Shown here: positions 22,117 to 62,094 of the stretch, piece by piece
Position numbering within the stretch: position 1 is the stretch's first letter
How the letters are laid out: each line of letters opens with the position of its first letter
Origin: Chara braunii
Lineage: Eukaryota > Plantae > Charophyceae
Length of the DNA: 62,709 nucleotides
NCBI GenBank assembly: GCA_003427395.1
Contig: BFEA01000009.1
Location: 2,741,792-2,804,500 of the forward strand
Reading direction: 5' to 3'
The notes under the pieces: generated by a model
Told to the model about the DNA's origin: nothing
The model's input: the letters and a program-made list of their open reading frames with translations, nothing else
The model's database searches: none
Made by a program: the position numbers and the translations under genes

Positions 22117-22180
<64 letters not shown>

Positions 22181-22186
<6 letters not shown>

Positions 22187-22803: not shown

Positions 22804-22834
<31 letters not shown>

Positions 22835-22936
22835 GTTATGCGTTCGGCTGAACGTCCGAACGCATCGAGAGGGGGTCCCAAACGTTCGGGCGTTCGGGTT
22901 CGGGTGTTCGGCCCGTCCCAAACGCTGACAACCCTG
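22181..22936. mobile_element. hAT-like MITE inserted in a (TA)n tract of the 5' LTR
   Basis: Ends cagaattgccag / gctgacaaccctg (reverse complement cagggttgtcagc), flanked by tatatata. Absent from the 3' LTR at ~49086-49160. Confidence 0.75.
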
Positions 22937-23482: not shown

Positions 23483-23566
<84 letters not shown>

Positions 23567-25274: not shown

Positions 25275-25335
<61 letters not shown>

Positions 25336-28248: not shown

Positions 28249-29758
28249 AAACAGACACCCAGTAAAGGATGGGTAGATCTCGAGCAGTCTACCATACCAT
28301 TATTAACCTCCTCAATAAAATTGGATCAATCTGATTACTGACAGATTACTTCTGATTCTATTGAGGTGAGGATAGTGAGTTATTAGCCTGATAGACTCGT
28401 CCCTTCATCTCGACACTCTAATTCGATTCCTATCATATGACTCCTTTTAAAGATGGTTTGGCAATGTTGCATGTGCTTGCCAAAGAAGAAATCAAGAAAG
28501 AAACTTTGATAAACAGTCCTCAAAAGAAACTTATGTAGGACCATTGGGTCGGATAAACTGGGAATGAATTATTGTTCATGCCTGAACTGCAAGGCAACAA
28601 CCTGACAATTAGATAAGGATGGAAGCCAGAGAGTGGGTCACCAACTAGCGTTGATCTCTAGGTCACAAATCTAGAAGGAGTCTTCTAGATCCTAGTATAG
28701 GAAAATGGGATGTTAAGTTCTTTGGGACTGTGTTGTGCCTACATGTTTCCATCACTCTTGGGGAAACTACGGAAGAACCCGTAAGGGACTGCAATTCTTG
28801 TTCCCGTTGGATAACAGATCGGTAGGATTCCGACTCAACTTCCACATGGCTTGATACCCACATCTAAGACAAAATCGAAAAAAAGACAGAGAGATTTTCC
28901 CGTAGCTAAGCCTGAATTGTCCTAGTCACTCTCAAAGGTCTTTGAAAAGGTGAGGGTTGGGTAAAAGAGTTAGGAGTAGGAAGGAATGTTGTTCCAAGGT
29001 TTTGTGGAGTGAGGGACTTGCTATGAATGGGTTAAAGGTTGACGCTTGTAGTGCATTCTGTGTTTGCATTTGTACTCGTGTATTTGTGGTTTCTTTGCAT
29101 TTGCTCAAGTTTTGGGCCGTGATTGTCTCCTGAACTTGAGTGGTGATCTGAGATATTTGGATAGGGTGCACCACAATTGTGAAAGTGAGGTCTGCCACTC
29201 ATTCGCTCTCCTAACATACATATATAGGATTCTGTTGAAATTTTTTGGAAAAGGTAAAATTACAGAAGAAGCTAGACATTGACATTGATTATATAGTCAA
29301 CAAGGAACAAAGACTCTTTGTCATAAGTAGCTAAGCGTAGAAGACTATCCAAAAAGGGTTAACCTGATTAGGTAGTCGGTCCGAGGAAGTTAACTCCTCG
29401 GTACACAAATACGGGTCAGTCTTAAGGCGTTCTACCGCGCGTATGCCTATGCTACAGCGATCGAGAAAACGCCTTTGGTTGGCCTACCTCTGCAATTGCA
29501 TGTAAAAGCCTTCGCACATGGGTCAGTTGCTCAACAGGGATACGCCCACCTAAAGGATGGTGATAACTCCCGCAAGTGGAGGTAAGTTGTACCTCGCGGG
29601 ATCTATGACTTGTCGTAGGATCCGCGAGAGGTATAGCACGCTCGCACGGTCGGAGTGGTATTTAGCTAAGGTGACTTAAGACTCCTGCGTGATACGACCG
29701 TGAGGCCCGACACAAGAATTGTTTTACGTCTGGGTGTGGGACCGCCGTGCACGACAGG

Positions 29759-29778
29759 TGGCGCCGTTGCCGGGGATC
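29759..29778 (+). promoter_or_regulatory. Primer-binding site complementary to the tRNA-Asp(GUC) 3' end
   Basis: TGGCGCCGTTGCCGGGGATC, 2 nt after the LTR-terminal CA. Complement of plant cytosolic tRNA-Asp ...GAUCCCCGGCAACGGCGCCA; same PBS as Athila elements. Confidence 0.93.
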
Positions 29779-35300: not shown

Positions 35301-38145
35301 GGTCAATTGAGGCAAGATGAGCGACTGAGTTTGCCTATCCAACAATGAACGTTAAAGCTACTCTTCCTAAGTTTATAATTAACGAGGTTTTTTGGGGAAT
35401 AGAAAATGTGGAGCGAGCAGTACTTGCAGCGTAATCAGAGTCTGATATGGGTTTCGAGTTTGAAGCATCGGATGTTATTTATTGTTTGTACTTAGAAATG
35501 AGGCTGAAATTGGCAAAAGGGGACTTTTATAATATTATGTGTATCGTAAATGCGTATCTACGCACTTATCATCGGGAAGATCGTTTGACGTATTGGCGCA
35601 AGCTCTGTAAGGAAGTATGCATTGAGATCTTACTAGATGATATCCCATATTATTTGGTATGGTTAGAAGCTTTTGGCACAGGGATTGGGTAGCTTTGGAT
35701 GAGTTGAACAGTTGAAAACTATGAGAAAGGTGGTATCAGCAATACAGTAGATGGTTCTCAATGTTCGTTAATAGATAGTATAGGAATTTTTGTTAAGCGA
35801 AGTCAAACTGTCATGTCTTGACGTAAGATGAGACGGTGGTCGTTTGTTTGTCTCAAGAGATTCTACGGTCTAAATAAAAGAAGAAGAAGGAAAAATGAGT
35901 GATCTTGGTGATGACGATATCAATGGAGGAGGGTCACCACCTATAATTGCGGTCGAAATTGTCAAGCTATTGGAAAGGAGGACGATCAAAAGGTCAAACC
36001 TGTCGAAAATAGATAATCTCCCTTTCAAAGGAAAAAGAGTGTCTCACTGGTTGGAATTGCTAGAACAAATCTTCAACCAGTTAATTTCCGCTGAGAAATT
36101 TTCTCAGTTGTACGAATATGTATGGTGGGAGTTTAAGCCGGATGTGGAAGAAGTCGCAAGGAAGGCCAATGATAATTAGGCAGAATTTAAGAAGGGTATG
36201 CAGAGGAAGTTTAAATTAGGGGACGGTCTGCTCACTATTGAGCACTTGTACAATATGAACCGGGATGATTTCACCACGATTGGGGCATTCGCCAATGCTT
36301 TTGAGAAAACGGCAGAAAGAGTCTCAAGGTTGTCTGAAGAAATGCAGTGCGTCATTTTTCTGTGAAAGTTTTCTGGGTATGAGGCCATGGCGTTGACTCG
36401 AGGAGGAGCCTCAGGCAGGAAAACAACTTGGGAAACTATTAAGAGAAACATCACGGTCGGGGATCTGGACCAGGTGTTTTACCACGAAGTTGAAGTGAAA
36501 CGAAGGAAAAGAAAGGCAGTAGAAACAGATAAAGGGACTGACAATGCGTTGAAGGGAGTACTGAGTGACATGGCAAATGAGATGAAGGAATTGAAGGAAA
36601 AGGTGTCGCCAGGGAAGGTAATGACGGTTACACAACCATCAGGGAAAAGGAAGAAAGAAGAAGAAGGGGAATGCGAGGAAGAAGAAGAAGAGGATTATGA
36701 GGTAGCGGTAAGAAGGGGAATGCGAGGAAGAAGAAGAAGAGGATTATGAGGTAGCGGTCAAATTAACAAAGTGTCGAAGGAAGGCGAGATATTTAGCCAT
36801 AGGGGGACAACGTACGGCGAAAGGACATGTTTCTCCGCAAGCGATAATCCAATATGGCCAAGAGTCGTCAACAGGCACAGCTCAGTTCGGACAATGGCCA
36901 GTGGGGCCACTGATGAGGGGATGGCCCGGGTATTTCCTGATGGGACCATGGTCAATGCAAGGACCAGTAGGACCTTTTCCAATGATGCCACAAATCAAGA
37001 ATGTGGGAGGCGAGCAAGGAGTAGGACGTGATCAACAAAAGGGTAAACAACAACCAGGACCAAGTCACCAAGNNNNNNNNNNNNNNNNNNNNNNNNNNNN
37101 NNNNNNNNNNNNNNNNNNNNNNNNNNNNNNNNNNNNNNNNNNNNNNNNNNNNNNNNNNNNNNNNNNNNNNNNNNNNNNNNNNNNNNNNNNNNNNNNNNNN
37201 NNNNNNNNNNNNNNNNNNNNNNNNNNNNNNNNNNNNNNNNNNNNNNNNNNNNNNNNNNNNNNNNNNNNNNNNNNNNNNNNNNNNNNNNNNNNNNNNNNNN
37301 NNNNNNNNNNNNNNNNNNNNNNNNNNNNNNNNNNNNNNNNNNNNNNNNNNNNNNNNNNNNNNNNNNNNNNNNNNNNNNNNNNCGGACAAGGATACGGAAG
37401 AGGATGGGTAAACTACAGTGAATGTACTTGTACTCACTGTGGGATCAAAGGGCATACGGTAAAGCGGTGTCACGTCAGGAAACTAGACGAATGCGATGAA
37501 CGCATCACCTCGAATATAGATGGTGATGTGTTCAACAAAAGAGGTAATATGATCAGTCTGGACATTCCTGGCGGCACGAGGGAAGAAGCCTTCCGACTGG
37601 CTGGGCTTGGCCCCAGCGCTCCGACGATGTTCTAAATTTGGCAAGAGAAGGAAGGCCATGTTGTGCATGTGGAAGATATAACGGAACTAGAAGAGAAAAT
37701 GGGCAAGATAGAGGTTAGAGAAAGCAAGGAAAACGTTCCCCTCATTGAAGAAGAAGCAGAGGGGGAGGATGTTAGCGTCAATGTCAAAGAAACATTCGAT
37801 AGGATGGAGTACTTAGTGGAAAAAATGCAAAGGTTACACCTAAGGCTTCGCGGAATATGTGAAGAAGTTGGAAGAAAATGAATTAGATATCCGAAAGTAT
37901 TTACCACTGGACTCAAAGGACAAGGGGAGCGACCAAGTAAACCTGACCCGAGAATGTTGAGAGCCAACATGGCTGCGAAAACGAGCATGGGTCAAAGGAA
38001 CGTGAGGGGGTCCTTTCCATACGCTACGAGAAGGCAAGAGGGGAACAATCCTCCGAAGGAACAAACACAGACTTCCCAGCCGGTTGAGGAGGAGTCACCA
38101 ATCACGGTAGAAGAGGATGAGGACGAGGACGATAAAATCAGGGAA
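31336..38145 (+). repeat. Tandem duplication of ~3.37 kb (31336-34703 and 34704-38145) covering the ORF0 3' part and most of gag
   Basis: Junction ...gataaaatgagggaa|gtatgctcacaagtacgaa. Copies are colinear and highly similar but not identical. Confidence 0.95.
32527..34703 (+). pseudogene. gag: gag copy 1 (truncated by the duplication junction)
   Basis: MSDLGDDD...PKIDIFPFKGKTVSHWLELLE; zinc knuckle CTHCGIKGHTVKRC (C-x2-C-x4-H-x4-C) at ~33987-34028; in-frame stops. Confidence 0.85.
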
Positions 38146-39237
38146 GAAGAAGATAAGCAGGCGGAAACTATGGCTAAGGAGAGGAAAGAAGAAGTCAAGG
38201 AAGGGAAATCGAAGACAGATCAAATAGCGAGCAAGAAACGAAAGTATCAGACTTCGATCGAGGAAGGAGTTGACCTGGAAGGACTACTGAATAAGTTATT
38301 GGAAGGTCACAACGAATTGTTGAATTTAAGAGAGATTTTTGCTTCAGCCCCAAGACTAAGGGAAATGATGAAAGCTAGGTTGTCACACAAGAGAGTGGCC
38401 ACAGTACGAATAGGGGACCTGATTCCCAAAGAAGCCAACTGGAGCGTTGCAGGAAGCAAGATGAACTGACAGTTCGTGGGGACCGGGTCCTTAGATATTA
38501 TGATGAAAGGGAAAATGTGTTGAGGTATGGTTGATACAAGGGCCGAAATGAATATCATAAATGAGGAAACTGCAGAGAGATTGGGGTTGGAGATTGATGA
38601 GAATGATTGCGGAATCCTCAATGGAGTTAGTGGCAAAACCAGATAAATGGGAGTCGCTTCAAATGTTGTAATAGAAATAGGAAGGGTTAAGGTGCGCACA
38701 TGTTTCTACATTATGCCAAGTTTGGACCTCCTGATTTTATTAGGCAGATCCTTCTTGTGCAGATCCGAAGCGCTCATTTTGAACAAACACGACAGCACCA
38801 TGTTCGTTATCCTATGTGATCCCGCTTGTGGAAATTTTGAAGTAATTACTTGTAGAAATACCGGGCCACACAGTTCGAAAAACTGGCTCAATGCGGGATC
38901 ATATACATTCGAGGAATCGGAGAATATGCGGAGACAACTAGAATAGGAAGACGAAGAAGAAACGGACGATAAGGAAGTCGGTGGGCTCGTATTGAGCCTA
39001 TCGAGTATCAGTGAAGCAGTCGAGTTGGTATCAACCTATAGGATGGCTGACCCTCATGCCGTCAGGGCGCTTGCTGAAAGAGTTCAGGAAGATCCAAAAG
39101 GAGAGAAAATCGATCTGGTGTACAGACCTCCCTCTCCTCAGATAGTAGGGCCACAAACATCAAATGCACAAGCGGCCGACCAACATTTTTTAGGGGTGGG
39201 CTCAAGTAGGGCTCCAAAAGACGGTACAAGACGATAA
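35895..39237 (+). pseudogene. gag: gag copy 2 continuing in frame into aspartic protease
   Basis: CCHC knuckle ~37429-37470. Protease motif GMVDTRAEMNII (~38524; DTG decayed to DTR) and LILLGRSFL. The frame ends shortly after the slippery site. Confidence 0.88.
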
Positions 39238-42207
39238 ACAAGAAAAGTCACCCGGTACCAATTCTGGTAAGTTAGGAGGAAGGAGTGTATTACGAGCAAG
39301 AAAGGGAGTTGATACGACAAATGAGAGAAAGTACTAAAAATGAACCTTGTCGCATCAATAAGGAAACTGAAAGAAATTTGATAATAGGCGAACCCGGTTT
39401 CCTGACAAACCAAGAAGAGGCTTCGGTTAAGGACCTGATACGTGAGAAGCATGGAGTGTATGTTTTCACTGATGATCAGCGAGGATGGCTGAATGTTTAC
39501 AAAATCAAAATAATCCGCATTCATACTATGCCTCATGAGTCATGGAATGTTCGAGGAGCTAAGTATCCCAATCCTGAAGATCGTAGAAAAGTGGTGGAGT
39601 ACCTAGATGGGAAGATTCGTACGAATGCTGCAAAATTTTCTAGCAGACCATACGCTTCTCCTTGGTTTTGCTTTGTAAAACCAAACGAGGTGCTTAGATG
39701 GGTACAAGACCTACAACGATTGAATGTGGTGACCGTAAGGGATGCTGGGGGGTTGCCTAACGCTAGTCAATTGTCAGAGTTTTGCGCAGGAAGATCGATT
39801 GTATCCCTTATTGATCTCTACTCAGGGTATGATCAGTTTCCTATCTATCCTGCAGACTGTCATATAACGGCGATGCACACGCCTAAAAGGATGGTCCAAA
39901 TGAATGTTGCATCCCAATGATGGACCAACGCAGTGGCAATAGTGCAACGCGGTATGATCAGAGTAACGCAACCGATCAACCCTCAAATTACTGAGCCGTA
40001 CATTGACGACCTTGCCGTCAAGGGCCCTATCGAGAAAAATGAATCGGAAGTGGCTTATGGGATAAGAAGGTTCATATGGGAGCATGTCTAAGGATTAAGA
40101 GAAGTTATATCTCTCTTAGAAGAATACAACCTCACTGTTAGTGGCGTGAAAACAAGGCATTGTGTGAAGAAAGTAACCATTCTGGGATATGTATGCAATG
40201 AATATGGTCGACGACCAGATGGTAAAAAGACTAACAAAATTCTGGAATAGCCTACCCCCTTCAAGAATGTTAGTGAAGTTCGTAGCTTTTTGAGAACCTG
40301 TGGATTCTGGAGAAGGTTCATAGAAAGGTTTGCCACCAAGACGGGGCATCTAAGGAAACTACTACGAAAGGATCAGAACTGGGAGTAGGGTGACCTTCAA
40401 GAAGGAGTGATCGATGAGTTGAAGAAGGAATTCAAAGAAGGGGGTTTAGTGTTGGGGGTGCCAGATTATGATGCAACTATGGAAAGACCTTTTATAGTTG
40501 AAACCGATGTTGGACCAACTGCCTTGGGAGATGTCTTGATCCAGGTAGACAGTAGCGGAAAGGAAAGACCTTTGAGATTCGAAAGCCGAACGCTCAATTC
40601 AACGGAACGGAACTACTCACAGTTCAAAAGGGAAGCCTTGGCAGTCCTACACTGCCTAAGAATTTTCAGGCATTACCTTTTTGGAAGGACGTTTATCCTC
40701 AGAATTGACCCAACGACGCTCATGTATTCTCTCAAGAAATTTTCGCCATCAGACCCGACTATAATCAGGTGGCTTACCTATATATGGATGTTCGATTTTC
40801 AGCTAGAATGTATCCCGAGAAACAGGAATAAGGATGATGGCATGAGTAAAATTGAATGGGGAGATCAAGCAGGGTCAGAAGAGGAGGCAACTCCGGTAGA
40901 TGAATTTTTGGAAGAAAAGGATGATATGCGTACTCATGTCAACTGTTGGGCTATGTTCGTTGAGAGTAAGGCAATGAGGAGAGGAAATCCGATGTGGCAT
41001 CCGCCTCCTGAGTTTATGAGGGATACTTACGCCGATAGTAGAGGAGGAGTCATAGGAAGAAAGGAACCTGGAATGGATGATGGAGTTGGCCTTAGCCGAG
41101 AACTATAGGGTGATGGATGAGCCACGAACGGTCGAGGCAGGAGCTTGACAAGCAGACGAACAAGTAGCCATGGTGGGTAGAATGTACTACTTGTCGATGA
41201 CGAATTCCCTCTTACAAGTCCAATCGAATGATGAAGGGAGTGTGGTGAAAGCTGATGAAATAATAATTGGGGATGATTATGAATTTGATGAGGAGAAAGA
41301 GGAGGAATTTGAGCAAGGAAAGATTTCATAAGATTTCCGAGAGGAGGAGTATGATGGATTCTACCTAGAAATGGGATTGCTCCTTCAAGGAGACAAGAGG
41401 GAGAGAGAGAGGTTAGTGAGACGACTCTTCGGATGAGAGATCATTATGTAGTAAGAGGTGACCATTTATTCATTTAAGATAAAAGGGGGCCGCCGCGGCA
41501 GTGGTGTGCAGAAATAGTCGTGAGATTGATGTCATAGCTGCGCTTCATGACGGGATAGTTGGGGGACATCGAAGTTTTGCGGCAACCTACAAGCAGGCGA
41601 TGAAACTCTACTATTGGGTAAGAATGTTTGAGATGAATCGTATATACTGTGAATCATGTGTACCTTGTCAAATACGATCACCCGTCAAATATAAGGAGCC
41701 TCTGCATCCCAGGTACATCAAAGATGTGGGGGTAGTTGTTCATTTGGACCTACTGGCCATGCCGTAAGGGCTCAATGAGTATACTTATATATTTGACGTC
41801 AGGGACAACCTTACCGGATTTGTCGATGGCAAGACCATTAGGAACAAAACTGGGGTGGTGCTGGCAGAATACATCAAGGAATACTACCTTAGGTATCCGT
41901 TCGTATTAGAATTCACAATGGACAGGGGGTCTGAGTTTACGTGTGGGGAAGTGAAAGAACTGCTAAGAGAATTAGGAGTCATGGGTAACTACACGACTCG
42001 GGCTCACCCACAAGCAAATGCGTCAGTTGAGAGGGGTCATAGTACCATTATAAATTTGCTAGCCAAATGGATCAATGGGAGGCCGAATCTCTGGCCAAAA
42101 TACCTGAGAATAGTATTCTTTGTGGAAAATGTCACTATTAAGAGGACAACGGGGTATGCACCTGCAACCCTCTGGCATGGTCGGCACGCCACATTCCCAA
42201 TAGAAAG
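39186..42207 (+). pseudogene. pol: pol: reverse transcriptase, RNase H and integrase (integrase C-terminus deleted)
   Basis: RT: YASPWFCFVKPN, WVQDLQRLN, IDLYSGYDQF, YIDD (39999-40010). RNase H: IVETDVGPTALG, YSQFKREALAVL. IN: H-x5-GH...CVPC zinc motif, HLDL, MDRGSEF and VERGH with D-35-E spacing. Confidence 0.95.
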
Positions 42208-42438
42208 CAAGATTAGAGAAGAGGTGAGCAGATGCTAATGACCGAACTTAAGTCAGCAAGTGTACACATACATTTATATATATATACATATATATATGAG
42301 TACATATATATATATATGGGTAAAGGATGTTTTCTAGAGCTTATGATGTGAAATGCTGCTTTGATGATGATGGTTGACCCTTGTACCTGTCACTGCTCCC
42401 TCTCTGTGTGTAGGCGTGACTCTTGAGAAGAGGTGGCC

Positions 42439-44633
42439 ATGGCCCAAAGAGGAAGAATGGCAGGGCCCTCTGGACCAACCTTGAGAAAGGGAAGGCAGAG
42501 GAGGGATCAGAAAGTCTCAAGGAGTCTGGAGGAGCTACCGATCTACGAGGCAGGGGATAACTGACGTGTATTCTTGAGAGATTTCGAGGAGTATGCCTTC
42601 AGGTGAGAATGGGATGACAGGATGAACCTCTGAAGGTGACTGGAATAGGAGGATATAAGAAAAAAATTGAAGGAGTGGCAGCAAGGTACTTGAGATGGAA
42701 GACTTATGTAGTCAAGTTGTGGCAGCTCATTGGAGAGTTTCCCAGAGATGAGATAGAGGATGACTTGGCATTTGATAGGATTAATTTGGATGATTTTGTT
42801 GAGAGCCTTCAACTATCTGCAGAGAAGGGAAAATGGAATGATGGGGATAAAAGAGAGAAATTGTTGGAAACAACAGAAAAAGTGAGCTTGAAGAAGTAAA
42901 AGAGATTGTGGATGGTGTTGACACTTGACAAGGCATAATGGTGAAGTTACAAATGACATACACTCAGCTGAGGCAGGACCAGACCAGAAAAGAGAGGCTG
43001 CAAGGGAAAAGATTGTGGATTGGAAGAGAGAAGGATAAGATGCAAGGGAGTGTCCAGGAAAAGGAAAAGGAAGAGGATGTGCTACTAAGGATCTTGAGGA
43101 ACAGACCTGGGACATGGGCCAAGGACAAGAGAGAAGGGGCAGAGCAGGTTCTGGAGAAAGGAGAAAAGGGGAAGGAGATGAGTGAAGCCTCAGGGGTTGG
43201 AAAAACTGAAGTGAGAAAGTCAGTTGAGGATGGCAGGAAAGGAGTTGAGATAACAGGAAGAAAGAGGAAAGGGGGATCAGAAAAGGATAAGGGAGTGGAA
43301 GAAGAGAAGTAAGGAGAGATAAGGGTGGAGTACGAAGGGTCATCCCAGAAGAAAGAGGAAGCAAAGTAAGTACAAATAAGCAAAGGGGAAAGAGCTCAGC
43401 AGGAGAAGTGGAAGAAAGAGTGGAGATGCTACAACACGATGATCTGTCTGCAAACTCTTCTTGGGATGTAAGGTTTGAGAGGATGTTGCTCTTTGAGCTG
43501 GTGGTAAGTTCAAAACATTCCACCAACATGCATGCGACTGCATGAGATGTAAAGTGCACCAGACATTTTAAAGAGTATGCAGAAGTTGCAAGGAAACTTT
43601 GTGAGATGGAGAGAGGAAAGGAAGAGAGGGAGATTGGCGATGATTTGAGTGCTTTGGGGAAGGGACTTCAATCAGAGCTCAGAGAAAGCACCGAGCTTTT
43701 CACCCAAGGATTCTTGGATTTTATCCTTGGGCTTCTGAGAGAGATAAGCAGGTTGAGGAAAAGGGAGGAGGAAAAAAATACCCAGGTAGCAAGTGTGATA
43801 GAGGGTTTGAAAGGGGTGACGAAGGAAGTGGAAGACTTAAAAAAGGCGAAGGAAGAATTGTTAAAACAGGTAAGTGCATTGGAGGTTTCCCGAGCCCAGA
43901 AGAGCAAGGAGTTGGAAGATGAAGCGGCAGAGAGGGAGAAGATAGAGAAGAAAGTTGAGGGTTTGTGCTCAGGAATCAGTGCGCAGGGGGAAAATTTAGA
44001 AGAAAAGATTACAGAAAGAGAAAAAATGAGTCAGATGTGGGAAAAAAGATGGGGTGAGATTCTGAAAGGGATGGAGGAGCTCAGACTAAGCCACCAAGAG
44101 AAGGACAAAGAGACAACAAAGATAGTAGAATGGAAGGGTGAAGAGGGGTTTGAGATTAAGATGACAAGAGGAGAAGGGGAGGATCCTCTGTCAAAAGAGA
44201 AAGAGGAAAAGAAAAATGAACAGACTGATGTTGGAGAGGTTGGGCCCTCCAGAAAGAGGACACGAGAAGGGTTAAGGATAGAGGAGCCTCCTGCCTCAGA
44301 GGAAGGAAATAGTGAATGTTTGACCCTGCTTCAGCAGGGAGGCGCTGAAAAAAGGAGGTTCCCTGGATTGGAGTCATCATAGGGAGCGGGGAGTCAGGCA
44401 CAAACTTCAACTAGACCTCACAAAAAGAAGGCTAAATACAACAAAGCCAGAATGGGTACTTCTTTTGCACAGAAGAATGACAGTTCAGGGATGACTGTGA
44501 GATATTAGCCAGGTACATTAAAGCAGGGATGACTAAGTTTGATGCACAAGGGAGGTTGGTTGCCAGCACAGGACAGACGATCCCAGGACGCCCAAGGGTG
44601 GCACAGTAGAGCTTCATCAGATACTGGGGTTGA
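42439..44633 (+). pseudogene. Second gag-like ORF downstream of integrase (capsid-like repeats, coiled coil, degenerate CCHC knuckle)
   Basis: gccATGg start after a pyrimidine-rich ...tgtgtAG. Peptides LPIYEAGDN*RVFLRDFEEYAFR*EWDD and AFDRINLDDFVESLQLSAEKGKWND; heptad-rich 43606-44382; YFFCTEE*QFRDDC near 44457. Confidence 0.65.
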
Positions 44634-46058: not shown

Positions 46059-46395
46059 ATGAAACGTGAGGTGACAATGTCAATCCTGAACCACACTTTA
46101 TTCCATGGATTCGGATTTGACGAATTGCTTGTCGGAAAACATCTTTGTTGCATATAGCTCTCCAGCGACAGGAACGTCGCTTAATAGGGTCCGGGAACAC
46201 TGCCGGACCAAATACCCTTACAAAGGTATTTGGCCATGTTTTTTAGGTCGACACGCCTATTGCACCGACCGCCATGACGAAGTCAGTCTGAATGTAGATG
46301 TGTATGTGTCTTTCGCACCGCACTTTCCTCGACCATTGAGGACGGAGCAAATCGGTTAGAAAATTTTGTTAACTATGCGCGCACGTTGTTATGAG

Positions 46396-47112
46396 CAGGG
46401 TTGTCGAGCTCCGGCCGGGGTCCGGGGGTCCGGGGCTGGGCACCCCCAACCCCGGCTCAGGAACCCCCCCCCCAAAATAAATAAATAAATAAATAAATAA
46501 AATAAAATAAAAAATAGTGTGGGGTGCGCAGCGAGAACGCGCACCACGTGAGCTAAACCACAAAAATGGGGTTTTTTGCCCCACCCCGGACCCCCCCCGG
46601 GGCCACACCCACCACTNNNNNNNNNNNNNNNNNNNNNNNNNNNNNNNNNNNNNNNNNNNNNNNNNNNNNNNNNNNNNNNNNNNNNNNNNNNNNNNNNNNN
46701 NNNNNNNNNNNNNNNNNNNNNNNNNNNNNNNNNNNNNNNNNNNNNNNNNNNNNNNNNNNNNNNNNNNNNNNNNNNNNNNNNNNNNNNNNNNNNNNNNNNN
46801 NNNNNNNNNNNNNNNNNNNNNNNNNNNNNNNNNNNNNNNNNNNNNNNNNNNNNNNNNNNNNNNNNNNNNNNNNNNNNNNNNNNNNNNNNNNNNNNNNNNN
46901 NNNNNNNNNNNNNNNNNNNNNNNNNNNNNNNNNNNNNNNNNNNNNNNNNNNNNNNNNNNNNNNNNNNNNNNNNNNNNNNNNNNNNNNNNNNNNNNNNNNN
47001 NNNNNNNNNNNNNNNNNNNNNNNNNNNNNNNNNNNNNNNNNNNNNNNNNNNNNNNNNNNNNNGAAACCCCTACCCCGGCTTGGGCCCCGGGGATCCCCGC
47101 TTGACAACCTTG
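46396..47112. mobile_element. hAT-like MITE with 8-bp TSD in the 3' LTR
   Basis: TSD gttatgag at 46388-46395 and 47113-47120. TIR cagggttgtcgagc / gcttgacaaccttg (12/14). Empty site at ~20150 in the 5' LTR. Confidence 0.9.
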
Positions 47113-48572
47113 GTTATGAGAGGCGCTGTGATAATTAGGCTCGGTAGTAATATTCGTAGACCGAAAAGGGTTGAGGTGTCGATTGGGTTAGTATTATATT
47201 GAGAAAACTTACGGCGCAGAGACTTTAGATAAGCTAAACTAGAATACACCCCGACCATATAGTCGGAGCAATAAAAGGAAGTAATTGTCGAATTTTGCAG
47301 TATCACCCTGAAAATGTTTGTGGCATGTCATGTGAACTTGTATTCCGCAAACAGAGGATGAGGCTCCCGCTCGGCCTCCTGTAAGTAGAGAGGGAATTGC
47401 CCCTTGGATGGTGACTTCCTGACCACGTGGCCACCTGAGCGACCGGTGTCTTCGTACCTTTACAGAGGGAGACACCGTTGCAAGCTTTGATATTATCCGC
47501 ACAGGGCCTAGACTCATACTACTTGAGCTGGTGCCCGCCTACCGAACGATACTGGGCCTCTGAAAATGCCTGCCTTTATATTCTTCTGCTCGGCCTCAAA
47601 TTCCCGACGCGTCTCCTTGATGTGGTATCGGCCTACCCGCTGCTTAAGTGTTTTCAACAACCCTTATGTGTCACGGGCCTCTTTCCCCGCCTCTTGAGTA
47701 TTTTCCCCACCGCGATACTCAATGTCTCGGCCACCAGTAAGTACCGACCCTTCTGGCCCTACGATGAGTCAAGTACTTTTGCGGGTCACACACGTGCTCA
47801 AGCCAACAAACATACTCGCACACGGACTCAGAAAACGGGCTCAACTGAGCCCCAATACACTATTTGTATCTGAACTGTTCCACTTCTACTCGAAGTAGGA
47901 GCTAGCTCAGTAGGTTTGGGTGCAAATTATTGAATGACAGACGCAGGGATCGAATTTGCCCGACCCTTGAGCTAGCTTCTTTTTGACAAGGAGCTCAAGA
48001 GTATTTTTCCCTGACCTTGGGTGGCAAGGACTTGAACCCGCAACCTGAGCATTAGGATTAGTTATAGTTAGCTGGTTAATTGAGATTTGGGCGCCCGCAT
48101 AACGGGGACCTGACACTTGGCCGATATAGGTAGTTTGTTGGATTTTTATTATTTTATTTTATTTTGTTCTTTTATGTTAACCGTAGTTTCACAAGATTCA
48201 CGTTCATGAATCTGCCTCCGAACTCCGAGCAGATTCAGACTAGTAAAGTAGCAACGAACTGATTGCTTGGGAGTACGACGCGACATCGCAAAGGCTGAGG
48301 AGTACGGCGAGGCATCGTGAAGAGTTAGAAGCAGGGCACGGCATCGCAAAGGCTGAGGAGTATGACGCGGCATCGTGAAGAATCAGGAGCAGGGTGCGAC
48401 ATCACAAAGGCTGAGGAGTATGGCGTGGCATCGCGAGGACTTGGGAAGCACGACACAGGGAAAAGAGAGGGCAGTGTGGAGAAAAAGAGGAAAAGCTAGA
48501 GGGAGCAAAAAGGGATATCGCAAGCAATTTAGAACGCAGGTGGTCGCACGAGAGGTAGGAGGCACGTGGGGA

Positions 48573-48603
<31 letters not shown>

Positions 48604-49085
48604 GAGGAGAAGAAGAGGAAGAAGAAGAAGGAAAAGAAGAAGGCAGAGAAAGAACGGGAAAGGTGGAGACAACTTATCTATTGCCCACCCTCTGATTCAA
48701 CACTCTCATCCTATAGAGGATAGATGCGGGTGTGTTGAAGTGCTGTCTTCGTATCCGCACTCACAAAAGGGGTCTTTCTATCAGTATCGGGAGGTGTCGA
48801 GACTCGTAAGAATATGCTGTGCTCGTTTTTCGATCGAGTAGCATCGTGGAGCAACTCACCGGCCAACAAGTAAGTCTCCGATCTGCAAATGAACTCTAGC
48901 TACTTGCGTTGGTAGAATGCACAGTAAACGAATGAATATATGACTAGAATATGAAAAAGGTACATTGCTATACTCTTGGGATTGAACAAAATCGAATGAA
49001 TCTAACGTTAGGATGAGGAAGTATAAATAACTATGCAAGCGTGCGGATATTTGTGGGTAAGTGGAACGTACCATGTATGTTAGGA

Positions 49086-49117
<32 letters not shown>

Positions 49118-50292
49118 GTTGTCAAATGTATATCCATATGCATATATATATATATATGTATACCTCGTTAAAATGAGCCGCTATGCACTATGCTGCAGGG
49201 GGCGAATGGTGGTCCTTGGGCACACGTGGCATTTGTGTGGGGATCGAGGTTGCGAGGGATACGAGAGACATACCTTATGATGGAGGTGATCAGCTTTAGC
49301 CCCGATCATACATCTGGGAGTTGTTGACGTCACTTACGACATTATAGATATGCTAGATAGGATTAGTCATTCGTAGTCTGGGCGCTAAGCGTCAGATAGG
49401 ATGTCGACATTGGTTCTTTGTTGATGATGATGAAACTCCTCAGACATTGTCACTTACGAGTTTTTGTTGTGCTCTTATTTGATGAAACTCATGTTGCAAA
49501 TCTGCTTCTAGTTTGAGGTTGCGACTATCTGCTGTCATGTGCGAAATGCTGTTTGATTTTTATAAATCGTTGTTGCTCATTATTATTGTCATGATTATTA
49601 TTATTATTATTATTATTATTATAATAATAATAATAATTATTATTATTATTATTATTGATATTGTAGCTATTATTATTATTATTTTTATTGTTGTTGTTTG
49701 TTGCCCTTATCTAAATGAGGTCGCAACAGAATGAAGTCAACTGAGGAAAAACATAGAGAGGAGAGAGAGAAAATGGCGGGATTGGAGGCAGAGACTACCT
49801 GGTACGGAGAGAGAGAGAGAAAGAAAAAGAAGAGGGGGGGGCGCATGATGATCGTAGAAGGCACGTAACGTCTGTGAATAAGGGACTGAGGTTGAGAATG
49901 ATACGAGAGACTTATTTGGTGCTTGAGGCGAGCAATGTTGGTCGATATCTGCTCGGACTTCGGGACACTGTTGACGTCACCGGCAACATTGTAGATAGGT
50001 AGGGTCCGCCATTAGTGGTTCAGGCGCTGAGCGCCAGATAGGAGCTCAACATAAGCGCATTGTTGATGATGATGAGATTCGTTCAGTGCTGTCACTGTGA
50101 CCTTTTGTTGTGCTACTATTTGGTAGAACTGGTGTTGCTATTCTGCTTCTGGTCACGACTATCTGGTCTCATGTGTATGATGCTGTTTTCTGAAGCTCGC
50201 CATCGCTCACTTTCCTTGCATTTTATTTGCTTTGATTTATTCTTTTATTAGTTGACTGATATTATTATTATTATTTATTATTACTGTTGTTG

Positions 50293-50353
<61 letters not shown>

Positions 50354-50878
50354 TGTATTCGCAATAGGACTCACTTCTTTCTTACTTCACATGCATGGTA
50401 CACCACACTGGCGACAACCGCCCAACTCAAAACTAAGAGAAGTGGAACCAAAAACGATGTTCGATTACAAACTCGCTGCAGATAGAGTATGGCGCTATAG
50501 CACCCAACAAGTCGTTGCTCATAGCTATGACCAACTCCACTGCTCATACCCTCAACTCTGGATCTTCCTGGATATCCCACACATGACACACTGTACAACC
50601 GACACATATGAATACGCACAAATAAAACAAACAGAAACAGACGAACCAGATTGACATACAGGAAGAAGACGGTCAGATAAACAGATCAACGCTGTGTTGG
50701 TGTGACCTGATGGCTTGAACGTTGGCTCATGACTTCATCGTATTACTCTTATTTGGATAGGATCTCGGTGCATTTGTGCTTTCTACTTGTACACGACTAC
50801 TTGGACATCTATGTGATTTCGCATTTGGTTTTCTGTATAACGTTCACACTCATATTCTCTGCGCTCGCGAGAAGGGAA

Positions 50879-50947
<69 letters not shown>

Positions 50948-53248
50948 AATGAATTTGATCTTACCTTCATCTGCCGCTCACCATGCGCGAAAGGTAGAGG
51001 ACGAGTTGAGCTGCATCCGGGGAGGACATGCTATTAGAGAGATGAAGAGACAGAGATTGGACTAGCTCCACAAAGTCTGTCAGGTGTTTTCATGCCGGTA
51101 ATGGATGTTCCAGTAAATTAAATGTATCCCATTCCCAGCGTCGGATACATTTGAAATATCGTGAAGTGGAGCAAGGCCTGTATGTGTGTGCGTGTGTGTG
51201 TGTGTTCGTTAAAGAGGGGAGAAAGGGACATACAAACAGGTAGATCGTAACAAACAGATAAAGACACAGATTCAGAAACACACGGTCACAGTGACACAGA
51301 TACTGTGACATACATACACAAGTGAAACAGTGAAATACACACATATATAACAAAATACACTCATACACAGCGACAAACACGGACACTGTGACACTCGCAC
51401 AAGCACAGTGAAAACAGAGAAACACGCATAGTCCAAAAAAAAAAAAAAAAAAAAAAAGAGTGCACAATGACACACAGTGCACAAGAGTACACAAACAATG
51501 ATGCGCACAAGTAACACACACTAACAAGGAAAGTCACACATATGCACTATGTCACAAACACAAACACAGTCAGTCACACATTCAATCAGACACACAACTG
51601 GATACTCAAGCAAAACGGACGGACAAGCATGAGGATGTAAGGGTACGTACCTGGTATTAGCAGAGACAAACATAGGTCGACACCTTTATATACTTGAGGC
51701 GGTTGTCGACACCAACAAAGGCTCCGTCACTTCATAGGATAGTAATAGTTGCATAGATTATGGTACCCTACACATACAGCGTGAGGCTGGCATAGTAAGA
51801 ATGGGCCAAGAACACTATGAGCGCAGTATTGACGCCAGGTCCGCACGCAGGCACGGGCTGGCGTGAGCCGCCACGGGATAGCGGGGCACTAGCGGGCGTG
51901 GTCAGCGAGCCGCCAGTGGTTGTGGTGAGGCATGCAGAACAGCGAGCGTGCATGCTAGGATAGGTGTGTACATGCGTATATGGGACATCCAGGGTGGATC
52001 CTAGTTGGAAAAAAAAGTATTGAGTACTGGTGCAATTAAGTTGCTGGTGACACGGTGATCGAGGGGGAAGAGAGAGATCCTATTGAGTAATGTGGGCCCG
52101 AACCATGTTCAGAGAGAGGCTAAATCAGACTGTGTTGCTGATCAGATCCATGAGCCCCGAGTGGTATGCATATTTTTTGCCCAAATTAAATGTCATTATT
52201 CTATCATTTTCCATTACTAAATAGTGTTATTATTGCTGCTATTATTATTATCATTAATACGCTATTTTATGATTTTATTTATGACATTATTACTACTACT
52301 ATTACTATTATTCCTGACAGCTATATGGAAAGGTCATAAATGTAAAGGGGTACAGGGTATTGGAAAAGGAGAGAGTCACTGTAATCAGCGATAGGATCTA
52401 CCTCCTCAGTCCTTCTCTCTTCACCCCGCAACAAAACCTCTCACACACCAAATACTTCTATACAAAATGGTTAAAAAAATGTTAGTACAAAGTGGCTCTG
52501 AAGGAAAGGTCTTAATTTGAGGGACTTAAGATCCTCTTTCATCCAGCTTAGATATATCCAAAAGACAAGGCGATTGCAGGAGCTCTGCTGGAGTTCAGGC
52601 GGAACTCTGGAGGCAGGGAACAACGAGGTACACTCACTTCTCGGCCTAAACCATAAACCTTTAATCTATAACCTCCGGGTAATGGTCTTTGCATGTAATA
52701 ATAGAGAGAGCGTTTTGAGTCAGCAATTCTTCAGAACTGAACTCAAGACAAGGAAAAGAAAGAAATGCCTGTATAAAGAAAGAAGAACCATGGAGAGACT
52801 GTTTGTATGGAAGAGATTTTATTAGAGTCTGACCGACTGTCGCTGGAAGACATAAGGAGAACGAGAAGTTCTGAGTATTTGTCTTGCTATGTGAATGTTT
52901 CTTTAGGGATGTGGCCACAAGGGAATCCACTTCGTGGAGTCTTCCCTTACTTAATAGACCACCTGGCAAATAATAAAAGGGGTTCACAGTTGACTGAAGA
53001 TTGTGTATGATGTGTTCGGATATTGTGATGATGAATTGCATCAACTTATTCTTGTTCCACAATGACTTAACCCTACATTCTCTCAAAAATATAAAACTAA
53101 CACAATCTGAGGATCAGGCCGAAGGTCTTTAAGCCATGAGGTACAAGTCCCGTATGGACTACCCGCATAATCTTAAAGTCTTCCGAATGACCCAAGGCTA
53201 AAAAAGCGTCAAAAGAGACGACCAATGTCGTCAGAAAACTTGTATAAA

Positions 53249-53782
53249 CGATAGGAGGAGCGAGACTCCGAGAAGCCTGCCCTATCGCAATAATGGCACG
53301 GAGGGTGATAAGAGAAGCGAGGCTCCGAGAAACCTGCCTTACCACCAACCAGCCGTGCGTTAGTACGAGTAAGCGATAGGAGGAGCGAGACTCCGAGAAA
53401 CCTGCCGTATCGCAAGGATAGCATGGGGGTGATAAGAGAAGCGAGACTCCGAGAAGTCTGCCTTAACACCAACGAGCCATGCATTCAAACAAGTGATAGG
53501 AGCAAGGCCTCTTAAGGCATGCCCCATCGCTTGTGTAGCACGGGTAAGGGAAGTGGTGATAAGAGAAAGGAAGGCTCCGAGAAGCATGCCTTATTACCTG
53601 CCAACCGGGCTTCGATATCTAACGACGATAGGAGGAGCGAGGCCGCAAGGTCTTCCCTATCGCAATCACTAGCACAAGTAAGGGAAGTGGTGATATGAGA
53701 AGCCTGCCTTATTGCCCGCCAGCTGTGCTTCAATATCAAGTAGTGATAGGAGAAGCAAGGCCCACGAGGTCTACCCTATCAC
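53249..53782 (+). repeat. Stem-loop array (9 units) in the 3' LTR
   Basis: Uninterrupted counterpart of 27127-28248. Confidence 0.85.
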
Positions 53783-54758
53783 AAACAGACACCCATTAAA
53801 GGATGGGTAGATCTCGAGCAGTCTACCATACCATTATTAACCTCCTCAATAAAACTGGATCAATCAGATTACTGACCGATAACTTCAGATTCTATTGAGG
53901 TGAGGATAGTGAGTTCTTGACCTAATAGACTCAACCCTTCATCTCGGAACTCTGATTCGATTTCTATCATATGACTCCTTTTAAAGATGGTTTGACGATG
54001 TTGCTTGTGCTTGCCAAATAAGAAATCAAGAAGGAAACTTTGGTAAGCAGTCATGAAAAGAAACTTATGTAGGATCATTGAGTCGGATAAACTGGGAATG
54101 AATTATTGTTCATCGTCTGAACTGCAAGGCAACAGCCTGACAATTAGATAAGGATGAAAGTTAGACAGTGGGTCACCGATAAGCGTTGATCTCTAGGTCA
54201 CAAATCGAGAAGGAGTGTTCTTAATCCTAGTATAGGAAAAGGGGATGTTAAGTTTTTTTTTACTGTGTTGTGCCTACAGGTTTCCATCACTCTTGGGGAA
54301 ACTACGGAAGAACCCGTAAGGGACTACAATTCTGTCATCGTAGGATAACAGGTCGGTAGGATTCCGACTCAACTTCCATATGGCTTGATACCCACATCTA
54401 AGACAAAACCGGAAAAGGGACGGACAAATCTTCCCCTGTATCTAAGCCTAAATTGTCCTAGTCACTCTCGAAGGTCTTTCAAAATGTGAAGGGTTGGGTA
54501 AGAGAGTCAAAAGTAGGAAGGAGTGTTGTTCCAATGTTTTGGGGAGTGAGGGACTTGTTATGAATGGGTTAAAGGTTGACGCTAGTAGTTCGTTCCCTGT
54601 CTGTATTTGTACGCGTGTATGTGACTTCTTTGCTTTTGCACAGGTTTTGGGTCGTGATTGTCTCCTGAACTTGAGTGGTGATCTGAGACATTTGGACAGG
54701 GTGCACCGCAATTGTAAGAGTGAGGTCTACCACTCATTCGCTCTAAGATACATATATA

Positions 54759-54808
<50 letters not shown>

Positions 54809-55381
54809 CAAGACTATATTTTGGGCCAAGCTTATGCAGGTTATTATCTAGGATTCTGTTGAGATTTTTGGGAAATGGTAAAATTACAGAAGCAGCTAGA
54901 CATTGACATTGCTTATATAGTCAACAAGGAACGTAGACTCGTTGTCATAAGTAGCTAAGCGTGGAGGACTGTCCGAAAAGGGTTGACCTGATTAGGTAGT
55001 CGGTCCGAGGAAGTTAGCTCCTCGGTACACAAATACGGGTTAGTCTTAAGGCATTCTACCGCACGTATGCCTATGCTACTGCGATCGGAAAAACGCCCTC
55101 GGCTGACCTACCTCTACAATTGCATGTAAAAGCCTTCGCACGTGGGTCAGTAGCTCAGCAGGGATACGCCCATCTAAAGGATGGTGACAGCTCCCACAGG
55201 TGGAGGTAAGTTGTACCTCGAGGGATCTCTGACGTGTCGTAGGGATCCACGAGAGGTATAGCACGCACGCACGGTCGGAGTGGTGTTTAGCTAAGGTGAC
55301 TTAAGACTCCTGCGTGATACGACCGTGAGGCCCGACACAAGAATTGCTTTACGTCTGGGTGTGGGACCGCCACGCGCGACA

Positions 55382-58480: not shown

Positions 58481-60894
58481 TGTCGGCGCGAATACCCTTA
58501 CAAAGGTATTCGCCTTGTTTTTTGCAAGTGACCGGGAGGCTTGGTTAACTTGGAATTTTGAGTGCCCGCGCGGAAAAAATGGGGATCGTCCGCACGCAGG
58601 CTAAGGATTGCCTGAGTAGGAAGGGTGAGTGGGCGTACAGTTTTAAGGCGCACATGTGATTTCTTGTTTAAAATGAATTGTGAAGCCGGTATAACTATCT
58701 GGCTTGATTTTTGTTTACCACGTTTCGGTTGGCGGAAGGCTCGACATGTGGAAAGGTGTGAACGGTGGCCGCGACGCGACATGTACAAAATGGTGTGGGT
58801 ACTCGGCGGCCGCGCGCACGGTTGAAAAGGAGGGAGAGGCTTGGGTTGTTCTTCCCAGGCCTGGGCGATGCGCGGTACCACGTCATATTGAAACCTGTGC
58901 TCGACTGTCTCTGGCTTGGGCCTAGCCCTACAGGTTACAACATTGGACTATTACCATCGAGGTATGGGGGTCGAGGCCAGCGGACGACATCATGGGAGCA
59001 ATGGAGCGGCGTGGAGGAAACCGAGAGGTTGAGGGCCCGACGGGGCTATCCCTCTTCTGGTCTTATTGGCGGGCGAGGTGATGTCCGACCTGCAGGGCTG
59101 GCGAGGTGCCGGCAACTCCCTCTTTCCCCCGCTAATGTTTGTGTATTTTTCTTGATATATCTTTTTTTTTTTTTTTTTTTTTTACGTCCCTTTTTTCCTT
59201 TCCGCGTCCCGTGCTGGGGCGCGATACGTGGTTGTAGCCAGGACCCATAGGCGTAGCGTAGTTGGTACACCCATGAACTGTCGGAATACAGATCGCGCTC
59301 GATGCCGGATGGGTGGGACCCGGTACTCTGAGTTGCCTGGTCCTGCTCAGGCTTCGGTCAGGCAGAGGGTGCCACCTCGAGGCAGTTGCGAGGCCGGTCC
59401 TTCGGTAAATTTGTTAGGGGTTGGGGCGGCGCGGAGGAGACCCGCCTGGCCACTGTGCGGGATGACATGAGAAGGTCCGGAGATGAACCCGGACAACGAC
59501 GGGGCCAGGTGCTTGCGGAGGGAAAGACGAGAGACAGTAGGAGCTGCGCTCTTACTACGAGGGAGCCAAAGAACTTGTATTTAGACGTGCTCTGGCAAGA
59601 GATTCGTCCCGGGCATAGACAAAGAGCCACTATCAGCGTGTCGAAGAAATCAGCCCTTTCTTGCTCCGCTGTGCTGATGGCGGCGAGCGACAACAGGTCT
59701 CTTCGTACCGCAGCAGAAGACTTAGTCTGAGTTTGCCCCTTCTGGTGGTCGGCTGGAACAGCGAAGGGGTTGGAAACAAGCTACGGGGACTGAAGACCTG
59801 CCTGTTTGGTCGAGGCTGGCTGCGGTGCACAGTTGCTGCTGATTCTGTCGACCCAGGGCAAACTGCTGCTGCTGCTGCAGACTGGGCGTGGGCTGCTGCA
59901 GTTGCTAATGGCCGACTCTGTATGATGCCGCTAGTGCCTGTTGTTGATTACTGCATGCTGCGGCGCGCAGCCGCGAGCTGCTGGCCGCCGCTGTGAGTTG
60001 TGGCTATGTTCGGAAGCTGGGCAGGAAACGGTCGTCGTTGTGTTTGACTGAGCACAATCGTTGCTGCTGCTGACAGGGCACAGTTTACAACTATCTGCTG
60101 CGAGAAGACTGCGGCTGCTGATTGATAGTGTGTGAACTACGTTTGCGTGCGGACTGCTATTGTACGCTACTGCGTATTAATGCTTGTCGGTGTCGACTGT
60201 TACGGGTTGCTATGTAACCGCGATTGGGCTAAGGAGGGGTGTTGAGACTCGTGGAGGAGATCAGGCAGGATAAGTAGGGGGTTAGTGCTGCGATTTGTGA
60301 GGTTCGCGAAGGGTGGACCTGGACAGTTGACGTCAGAAGTTGACAAGGCTGCGGTGTTGTTTGGCCATCATTGTGGGGCCCTCAGGCGTTGAAGGTGCCA
60401 AGGCCCTCTCATGCGAGTCTGAGCGCACCATTCTTTGATCTGAGAGTCTCAAACTTTCTCTTTCTGTCCTTCTTCCTCTAAGTCTGCTCCTTTGGTTCTG
60501 AGAGGAAGGTGGCAGACGGGGCTGCGACCCGTAGTCCGTGCCAAGGCCTCTGTGGGAGGTTCGCCCCACCGATTGCGGGAGCTCTGCCGGGATTCGGGCG
60601 GAGTCCTGGAGGTAGGGAACTGAGTGGTAATTCCCAGACTCCTTCTATAACCCCAGTTATAACCCCTATCTGTATACCCCTCTACGGGTTGGCTGAGTGT
60701 GTTGTGTGAATCCTGTATCTGATTTTGGTTTGGCCTTCAGGACATAAATCAGAGTAAAGTAAAGGAACGTGTGTGCAACCTTAGTTTCAGCCTTACTGAT
60801 TGCCTGAAAGAAGATTGTGGACAAAAAGGGGTTGCATTTAGGGGGAAGGTTGGGAGGAAGGCAGTATTGCGTGCAGTTTTGATTGGGTCGTTAA

Positions 60895-61830
60895 GGCTGG
60901 GAGGTCCCCATAAGTTTCGGGAAGCCCAACGCTTTGTTTATTTTCGTTTTGCGTGGAGCAATTAGGCCGCTCTATAAGTTTAGGTAGCTTGAGTGCTCTT
61001 GAGGCTAGGGAGTCCCCATAAGTTTGGGAAGACCCGGTGCTGTGAATTGCGTGGAGGGTCAGGACGCTTTATAAGTTTAGGTGACCTAACTGCTCTGACT
61101 TGTGAGGGTTTGATTGTGGATGATTTTCAGGGACCCAGGGCGCTTTATAAGTTTAGGTACCTTGGGTTGCCTTGTTTTACTTGGAGGTTCTTTCAGTTTC
61201 TTTGATTCTGAACGAGAAGGTCTGAACCGCTCTATAAGTTTAGGTGGTTCAACTCTTCTCCTGTTTGTTCTGAGGGGGTAATTTTGTCAGGGGGCAGGCC
61301 ACTCTATAAATTTAGGTGCCCTGGCCTACTACCTCACACAGACTGGATCTGAGAGGAACGAACCTGGCAGAGGATCAGACCGCTCTATAAGTTTAGGTAG
61401 TGTGACCCAACGCCTCGCACATGATTGAACCCAATGGTTATGATTTGGTTATATTGTATTATTATATTATTAAGAATAGGCTAGTCAGACCGCTCTATAA
61501 GATTAGGTAGTCTGAGTATAACTTATCACAATTGAAGAGAGTATAATTAAGAGATATAACTGAAGGTAAACTTGGGCAGGCTGAGCAGTGTTCTAAGTTG
61601 AGCGGCTCAGCCCTATGTCTACTTTAAAGGTTAAGTTCAGAGAGATATATACAATTTGGCTATTTAAACAGTTCAGGGCGACTAGAGTGGTCTAGTCATA
61701 TGCCCAAAGAAGAGAGAAGTAGTTGTGTCCTGTGTTTTATATGTATTTGGCTAAGTCAGATGCGCTCTATAAGTTTAGGTGATCTGACTTTAGGCCTGGC
61801 TAAGTTGGGCGCTCTGTAAGTTCAGGTGGC
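60895..61830 (+). repeat. Array of 12 stem-loops with a TAAGTT apical loop and unique spacers
   Basis: Core cgctctataagtttaggt or compensatory variants. Loops at 60911, 60975, 61019, 61072, 61148, 61235, 61307, 61388, 61498, 61594, 61770, 61817. Confidence 0.9.
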
Positions 61831-62094
61831 CTGACCTATGCCTTCTGTAAGTTGGGTATAAAGGGGGTAACTCACAGAGAGAGCATGAACTATTGTTTGC
61901 TAAAGACTTGGGGGTTGGTGAGAGTACTTACCTTTGTGGTTTGGCCTGCCTGTGGCTGAGTGAGGCTACTACTTGGGCTGGGTTTCAGGTTGATAGGTAG
62001 TTGCTTTAGAGGTTCGCCACGTGCTAGAGCGACAGGAGTTAGTTCAATTCTTGCATTTTCTGAGCTGACTTTATTTTACTTAGATTGATTCCTG

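Follow-up and report, generated by a model that had tools for sequence, protein, structure and literature searches.

The array lies in the giant LTRs of a decayed Ty3/gypsy element

Self-comparison of the window (the whole 62,709-nucleotide stretch of Chara braunii DNA that was analysed, to which all positions refer) revealed two long direct repeats, at approximately 20106-29756 and 46201-55381. A primer-binding site (PBS), which we take to be of the tRNA-Asp type, directly follows the first repeat, and its position at 29759 sets the sense of the element as the + strand. The element comprises the following features.

20106 to 29756, + strand: 5' LTR; its first ~140 nt were not found and several insertions are present
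29759 to 29776, + strand: PBS TGGCGCCGTTGCCGGGGA, directly past the 5' LTR
30067 to 30282, + strand: first open reading frame (ORF) past the PBS; its N-terminus is rich in Arg/Gly, and it shares 71% identity with Chara braunii CBR_g53845 over residues 1-73 of the latter
32536 to 42235, + strand: broken gag (partly duplicated) and pol, with a CCHC knuckle at 33987 and 37429, the RT motif YIDD at 39999, RNase H and integrase
46201 to 55381, + strand: 3' LTR, ~8.5 kb once an insertion at ~46397-47110 is removed; TGCCGG start, CGACA end

Paired LTRs, a PBS and the order RT-RNase H-integrase identify a Ty3/gypsy LTR retrotransposon, with broken genes and Pfam matches for RT and integrase that fall under the curated cut-offs. 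Among 14 homologues of the RNase H region, the ten best are proteins from Chara braunii (40-68% identity). The two LTRs diverge by ~9.5% (over 3.2 kb aligned). Since these differences arose after insertion, they were used as a neutral control.

The first ORF has a single clear homologue among the 1.84 billion representatives searched. The CBR_g53845 gene model fuses the Arg/Gly-rich first-ORF sequence to Gag-like sequence, and the first ORF may therefore belong to Gag. When translated past its stop (X inserted), the ORF gave no match; the Atlas gave no usable match, and P0015 matched no Pfam family. Extra ORFs lie between the PBS and gag (30067-32877), where CBR_g53845 links the first ORF to Gag at ~32662, a junction that hints at a spliced RGG-Gag. 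Past integrase, a second Gag-like region (42502-44500) matches CBR_g53845 residues 266-385 and contains a coiled-coil stretch as well as a degenerate knuckle-like motif near 44460. The gag region contains a 3.4-kb tandem duplication of ~94% identity (31336-33655/34704-37072 and 33941-34704/37383-38146), which holds N gaps and may in part be an assembly effect. In what is presumably U3, both LTRs have a tandem repeat of 29/58 bp with an (AAG)n tract behind it, enhancer-like in appearance (21329-21497, 48270-48434). The LTR starts at 46201, 56165 and 58481 have in common TG(T/C)CGG..AATACCCTTACAA.GGGT/GGT, a terminal motif that is conserved and hairpin-like.

Nine bulged hairpins alternate in both LTRs

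An earlier note on this DNA had described nine units with alternating basal stems in both LTRs. These were found at 53248-53782 and 27127-28248, and are arranged as shown.

53248 to 53782, + strand: nine bulged hairpins of the 3' LTR, in the order A-B-A-B-A-B-A-B-A
53248 to 53288, + strand: unit A1
53304 to 53346, + strand: unit B1
53373 to 53413, + strand: unit A2
53428 to 53470, + strand: unit B2
53493 to 53530, + strand: unit A3 (3-nt loss)
53555 to 53598, + strand: unit B3
53625 to 53663, + strand: unit A4
53689 to 53716, + strand: unit B4 (15-nt loss)
53743 to 53782, + strand: unit A5
53296 to 53358, + strand: outer 6-bp helix around B1, GCACGG (53296-53301) with CCGTGC (53353-53358)
27127 to 28248, + strand: orthologous nine-unit array of the 5' LTR
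27380 to 27939, unstranded: later insertion of 560 bp that splits the 5' LTR array in unit A3, with a 9-bp duplication (GGTGATAGG) and CTGTG/CACAG ends

The insertion in unit A3 is presumably MULE-like, judging by the length of its target-site duplication. It is related to AT-rich insertions at 22287-22688 and 18704-20105, and the ends of these insertions are rich in TTGAACGCG.

Hairpin units are 41-45 nt long and form an A-B dimer of 124-133 bp. Each unit is predicted to begin with a basal stem of 8-9 bp, above which AGRA (AGAAA in B3) is unpaired on the 5' side; two G-C pairs and a single unpaired purine then lead to an upper stem of 5 bp, closed by a loop. The bulge is all-purine on the sense strand of the element in 17/17 copies that retain it, and half of the units have AGAAG instead of GGAG. 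An internal loop AGGAGCG had been proposed previously; AGRA and a single purine of this stretch indeed appear unpaired, but its GC is predicted to pair with a GC of the 3' arm. The quoted upper stems were all located: AGGCT/AGCCT (units at 27125, 27182 and 27250), AGACT/AGTCT (27306, 53427), AGACC/GGTCT (27939) and AGGCC-gcaa-GGTCT (53623). While the internal loop is conserved as claimed, it is not conserved in place of the apical loop, which is also largely kept: a CCGAGA-type loop is present in 6/9 units, with A3, A4 and A5 differing. In the same six units the hexaloop sequence permits a C1-G5 pair, for which no covariation was seen. The compensatory difference between the A and B basal stems exists, but represents one ancestral event spread by dimer duplication rather than nine. 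Several units of the 3' LTR carry pairs broken by post-insertion mutation.

A helix equivalent to that around B1, built from the spacers and not mentioned in the earlier note, encloses every B unit. In both LTRs it carries compensatory changes, from C-G to U-A around B2 and from G-C to A-U around B4. A search of the window with a covariance model of the 18 copies detected no additional unit.

Base pairing in the array is under selection

The 551-nt array folds with a z-score of -3.9 (+ strand) or -2.8 (- strand), and 0/100 shuffles folded as well. Under a 120-nt span limit the values are -2.9 (+) and -3.6 (-), with three flanking 551-nt stretches ranging from +1.0 to -2.2. Overall, 90.6% of 256 cells are paired, with two-sided change in 4 pairs, while controls slid along the sequence pair at 34-45%. 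The covariation score was reached by 0/500 shuffles, a test inflated by the relatedness of the sequences, and the two-sided-change count alone was reached by 161/500. These counts rest on 18 related copies within one element, from which the structure itself was derived.

A second contrast is provided by the two LTRs. States common to both are paired in 100/102 cells, and the alternative states among them keep the pair in 6 cases and break it in 2. LTR-specific differences, on the other hand, keep the pair in only 2 cases and leave 18/20 unpaired (Fisher p 0.002 versus the shared alternative states; omitted are the top pair of A4/A5, which cannot be aligned, the stretch missing from B4, and two columns where A3 has its deletion). 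Columns that vary between dimers number 21/26 in the spacers, 8/56 in the stems and 1/9 in the bulge. Between-dimer divergence is ~five times higher in spacers (0.47) than in stems (0.09), whereas LTR-versus-LTR divergence is flat over the column classes, at 5-11%. A neutral simulation with CpG/CHG weighting and matched stem divergence (approximate rates, star tree) gave 92.7% pairing with a mean of 0.37 compensated pairs, and at least 4 such pairs in 0/4000 runs.

Six compensated pairs were identified in total, two of which are contributed by the outer helix, found once the core structure was fixed. Three, namely the two outer-helix pairs and the outer pair of the basal stem, lie at CpG and could have drawn on deamination. 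The other three, a basal G-C/A-U, an upper-stem G-C/A-U and a top U-A/C-G, do not. Deamination at CpG/CHG, which the earlier note had named as the finding that would overturn its claim of co-varying stems, therefore does not account for half of the compensated pairs, nor for the 18/20 contrast. Selection on base pairing is thus well supported, and the array is very probably a selected RNA structure.

We also considered which strand is folded. Among core cells common to both LTRs, G-U outnumbers A-C by 6 to 1 (about four events), an excess that fits a + strand RNA; the outer helix adds one further shared A-C cell. Folding energy does not discriminate between the strands, as global folding favours + and span-limited folding favours -.

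The array occupies a slot shared with an unrelated array

A second hairpin array is present in a different LTR of the window. The features relevant to a comparison of the two are listed below.

52571 to 52621, + strand: 51-nt hairpin motif, recurring at 60570-60620 in the neighbouring element (82% identical, E 1.6e-8)
52628 to 52633, + strand: predicted splice donor GAG/GTACAC (26524 in the 5' LTR), a prediction only
54255 to 54643, + strand: two predicted splice acceptors 3' of the array, CAG ending 54279 and 54643, recognised by eye as a pyrimidine tract plus CAG
60889 to 61860, + strand: the other array, with a TAAGTT loop and variable stems, in an LTR that starts at 58481; used for comparison only

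The two arrays had been described as unrelated in sequence yet equivalent in position, and both statements agree with our results. The best BLAST match between them has an E-value of 2.8, and the covariance model found no match in the 60.9-kb array at E<=5. Both arrays follow the same 51-nt motif and a donor-like GT past it (52628 and 60627), and on this basis the description as one slot with different codes holds. The two LTRs that share the motif are otherwise unalignable. The motif itself folds as a predicted hairpin and has very high depth in genomic contigs. Where the upper stem of one LTR's copy departs from that of the other, the changes are matched, and U52594/A52604 both become C/G in 18/18 reads of RNA run X5. 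It is a candidate for a conserved RNA motif of these elements. At the donor position, relatives carry AG/GTAAG or AG/GTAACC. The acceptor ending at 54279 reads CAT in the 5' LTR, and neither acceptor passed a stricter script filter; a candidate acceptor past the 60.9-kb array lies at 62368. Further downstream of our array, contig depth at 54334-54442 and 54552-54660 is far over background (14,900 and 5,400, respectively), and the first of these stretches contains a GTCGG/CCGAC hairpin.

RNA runs X5 and X7 contain reads of relatives that cover the 51-nt motif, and the first mates of these all map to the - strand. In the usual library type, a first mate on - corresponds to sense RNA. Loose read ends in both runs continue with AG then AT where DNA contigs have AG then GT, with an agreement of only ~0.5, which is suggestive of splicing at the relatives' donor site. 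No RNA joint across the predicted splice sites was seen in the RNA reads examined. On the array, X5 and X7 gave no depth; the analysis covered 6% and 13% of these runs, respectively, which yielded 22 and 45 aligned reads in total. Run X6 provided 21 reads of other lineages at 80-95% identity, with the first mate on + in 18 and on - in 3; no strand can be read from this, because at the upstream motif both directions are equally frequent in X6. There were no RNA reads at least 95% identical over unit B1, and a search of sequencing runs gave no RNA run among the matches listed.

An upstream donor at 48870 is preceded by a GA-rich, repeat-bearing region. From these we infer a transcript start near 48.8 kb, which suggests that the array lies within R/U5. 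The array lying in untranscribed U3 had been named in advance as a refutation, but genomic RNA includes the U3 of the 3' LTR, and the question is therefore mis-posed in that form. There are 32 ATG triplets between the donor and the first acceptor, and an AATAAA at 53848, 66 nt past the array, is kept in both LTRs.

The hairpin core extends beyond this family

In genomic contigs, summed depth over B1 peaks at ~65,000 (run X1) and 38,000 (X2), compared with 300-800 for most neighbouring LTR bins. The core is thus ~80-200 times deeper than the rest of the LTR, a figure to be taken as a ratio and not as a copy number, and one obtained by short-seed matching, which favours intact cores. Depth drops steeply across the basal stem, from 65,000 in the core to 29,000 at 53308-9 and 9,800 at 53304-5. 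At contig joints, units follow one another in tandem, separated by short spacers that are AT-rich and bear no relation to the local ones, and contigs also carry other basal stems (GGCGATAAG with CTTATCGCC, and GTGGTAAG). The core is plainly present in lineages with LTRs that fail to align to this one at 80%.

At a 3% threshold, six substitutions over B1 were listed in contigs and reads. Two of these restore pairs that are broken in the present copy (G at 53332 and T at 53342, with 84% and 58% of X1 depth, respectively). The remainder are an A/G change in the bulge, changes at loop positions 2 and 4, and one at 53336 that passes in the RNA run only. The loop variants in contigs give CYGRGA.

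The core depth, together with the foreign spacers and basal stems, indicates a code common to more lineages than this family, and does not support the earlier proposal of a family-specific barcode. The hairpin core looks like a clade-wide code instead. Outside these data, 12 pattern matches in metagenome contigs were attributed to chance, as all were single and none had BLAST similarity to the window, and the hairpin pattern had 0 matches in viral contigs.

A possible docking signal for Gag on unspliced RNA

That the unpaired purines are conserved implies that something reads them. In retroviruses, NC recognises bulged purines left unpaired, G//AGG and GGAG among them, and these sites are often spliced out (PMC13736810). 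On the genomic strand, the array has a conserved predicted structure in which purines are left unpaired, and the Gag of this element has a CCHC knuckle. For these reasons, the reading we favour, though with some hesitation, is that the array may serve as a packaging signal on unspliced genomic RNA, with multiple docking sites for Gag. The nine hairpins, kept paired by selection, would act as RNA in the unspliced genome of the element. Its own Gag, the putative partner, would bind the unpaired purines via the CCHC knuckle and so pick this RNA for packaging. The array would sit in an intron predicted in the LTR leader and so be missing from spliced mRNAs. Other element clades in the same genome would have different hairpin codes in the same slot.

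The main rival to Gag docking is an export element. In this case the array would be an RNA response element, through which an accessory protein (the Arg/Gly-rich first ORF, for example) or a host factor retains the intron and exports or stabilises unspliced RNA, in a manner similar to Rev/RRE or the CERV of Cer1. The same structural and positional evidence fits, and an RGG-type ORF with a 71% identical Chara relative is indeed the first past the PBS. The LTR retrotransposon Cer1 needs a protein made from spliced mRNA for export of its genomic RNA (PMC10309623, accessible parts), and the C1-G5 hexaloop matches the pseudo-triloop motif of TAR, IRE and HBV epsilon as given in the available part of PMC1636360. 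However, the fusion in CBR_g53845 means the ORF may be part of Gag, the ORF has just the one clear homologue, and the hexaloop is absent in 3/9 units. We consider a response element possible but distinctly less probable than Gag docking.

A structural role without a dedicated protein (leader compaction, ribosome shunting past AUGs, or control of 3'-end formation) would account for the selected pairing, for the ATG triplets ahead of the first acceptor and for the AATAAA kept in both LTRs. It leaves the conserved unpaired letters unexplained: bulge columns rarely vary in comparison with spacer columns, and just two loop places vary at >=3% in contigs. Such a role is accordingly improbable.

The neutral explanation, in which dimer duplication spread a palindrome that had arisen by chance and compensation came from deamination on both arms or from template-switch repair, is already disfavoured. 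Inter-LTR transitions are commonest at CG (0.22) and CHG (0.17) compared with CHH (0.11), three compensations are at CpG, and the units are close paralogues, all of which speak for it. Against it stand the greater divergence of spacers relative to stems, the tendency of actual neutral changes to break pairs and the outcome of the simulation. In addition, the U-A to C-G change opposes the direction of deamination if the majority state is ancestral, and palindrome repair would remove the asymmetric bulge, yet the bulge is kept. We regard this origin as very unlikely.

A DNA enhancer, in which host transcription factors bind inverted pairs of GATAAG/GATAGG at fixed spacing (presumably GATA-type boxes) and the hairpin is a by-product, is the least probable reading, since the invariance of GATA in the 5' arm (18/18 copies) and the placement of the A/B difference on the degenerate purine of the box are outweighed by upper-stem and outer-helix covariation and G-U states that it leaves unexplained, by a basal stem that is the least retained part in contigs and by the existence of the GTGGTAAG variant.

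Returning to Gag docking, a more speculative extension, and a somewhat unlikely one, is a modular address slot in the LTR intron of giant Chara elements: a shared hairpin and donor followed by a docking array of each clade's own, with the cognate Gag reading only its own code. If this were the case, orthogonal codes would ensure that an element does not package the genomes of others expressed alongside it; they would also account for the coexistence of many families in one genome without mutual parasitism and for the choice of a helper by non-autonomous elements. The unrelated code in the same slot 7 kb away offers a built-in test of cross-binding specificity. To our knowledge, the choice of RNA for packaging or export by plant and algal LTR retrotransposons is poorly mapped, and a 41-nt unit under selection for both its fold and its unpaired letters is a minimal candidate signal for this choice.

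Comparison with known systems

Several known identities were considered. A kink-turn has tandem G-A/A-G pairs after a 3-nt bulge; this was rejected because the opposite strand here reads TGCC, without GA. A hammerhead reading was rejected by inspection, and a comparison with Rec-type GGAA was dropped when the literature search yielded no support. Rfam contained no match to the array; three matches in 52800-54400 (E 0.56-4) were all under gathering and outside the array. In the literature searched, which was largely that outside subscription journals, no account of an array of this kind in an LTR of a plant or alga came up; the Chara genome paper may describe these elements.

In retroviruses, Psi is found mainly near the PBS or past it, in contrast to the Chara array, which is 1.6 kb inside the LTR and upstream of the PBS. 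With the packaging signals of HIV-1 (SL1 G//AGG and GGAG), HIV-2 (GGRG) and MMTV/MPMV (ssPurines), as presented in the available portion of PMC13736810, the array shares unpaired purines on stem-loops, a location in the 5' region and a CCHC Gag, and its place relative to the splice donor could likewise distinguish unspliced from spliced RNA. It differs in consisting of nine near-identical tandem units rather than a few dissimilar loops, no palindromic dimerisation loop was seen in it, and its binding by Gag is putative. The order of lower stem, bulge, upper stem and hexaloop with a possible 1-5 pair resembles HBV epsilon, HIV-1 TAR and the IRE (PMC1636360, in part), a resemblance only; unlike these, the Chara hairpin has a purine bulge, is multi-copy and has other loops in 3/9 units. 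Rev-type systems and the CERV of Cer1 similarly place structured RNA in an intron, here a predicted one, of a complex element with extra ORFs (PMC10309623, in part). This likeness is one of layout, the Cer1 RNA element itself lying outside the comparison.

As an element, the host of the array resembles the giant non-chromovirus Ty3/gypsy elements of plants (Athila, Tat/Ogre and Phygy), with a Ty3/gypsy domain order, extra ORFs and very large LTRs with tandem repeats, in so far as these are covered by the accessible text of PMC6317226 and PMC6431247. As for Phygy target sites in the available literature, the flanks at three insertion junctions of the window (55382, 56161 and 58477) are NCGN. 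Giant plant LTRs of up to ~5 kb (PMC6317226) or 6.5 kb (PMC6431247) are given in the same portions of these sources, compared with ~8.5 kb in Chara, and the descriptions there include tandem repeats and no covarying hairpin array. The array is real and selected, and is probably a variant of the cis-acting RNA signals known from retroelements, with Gag as its putative partner.
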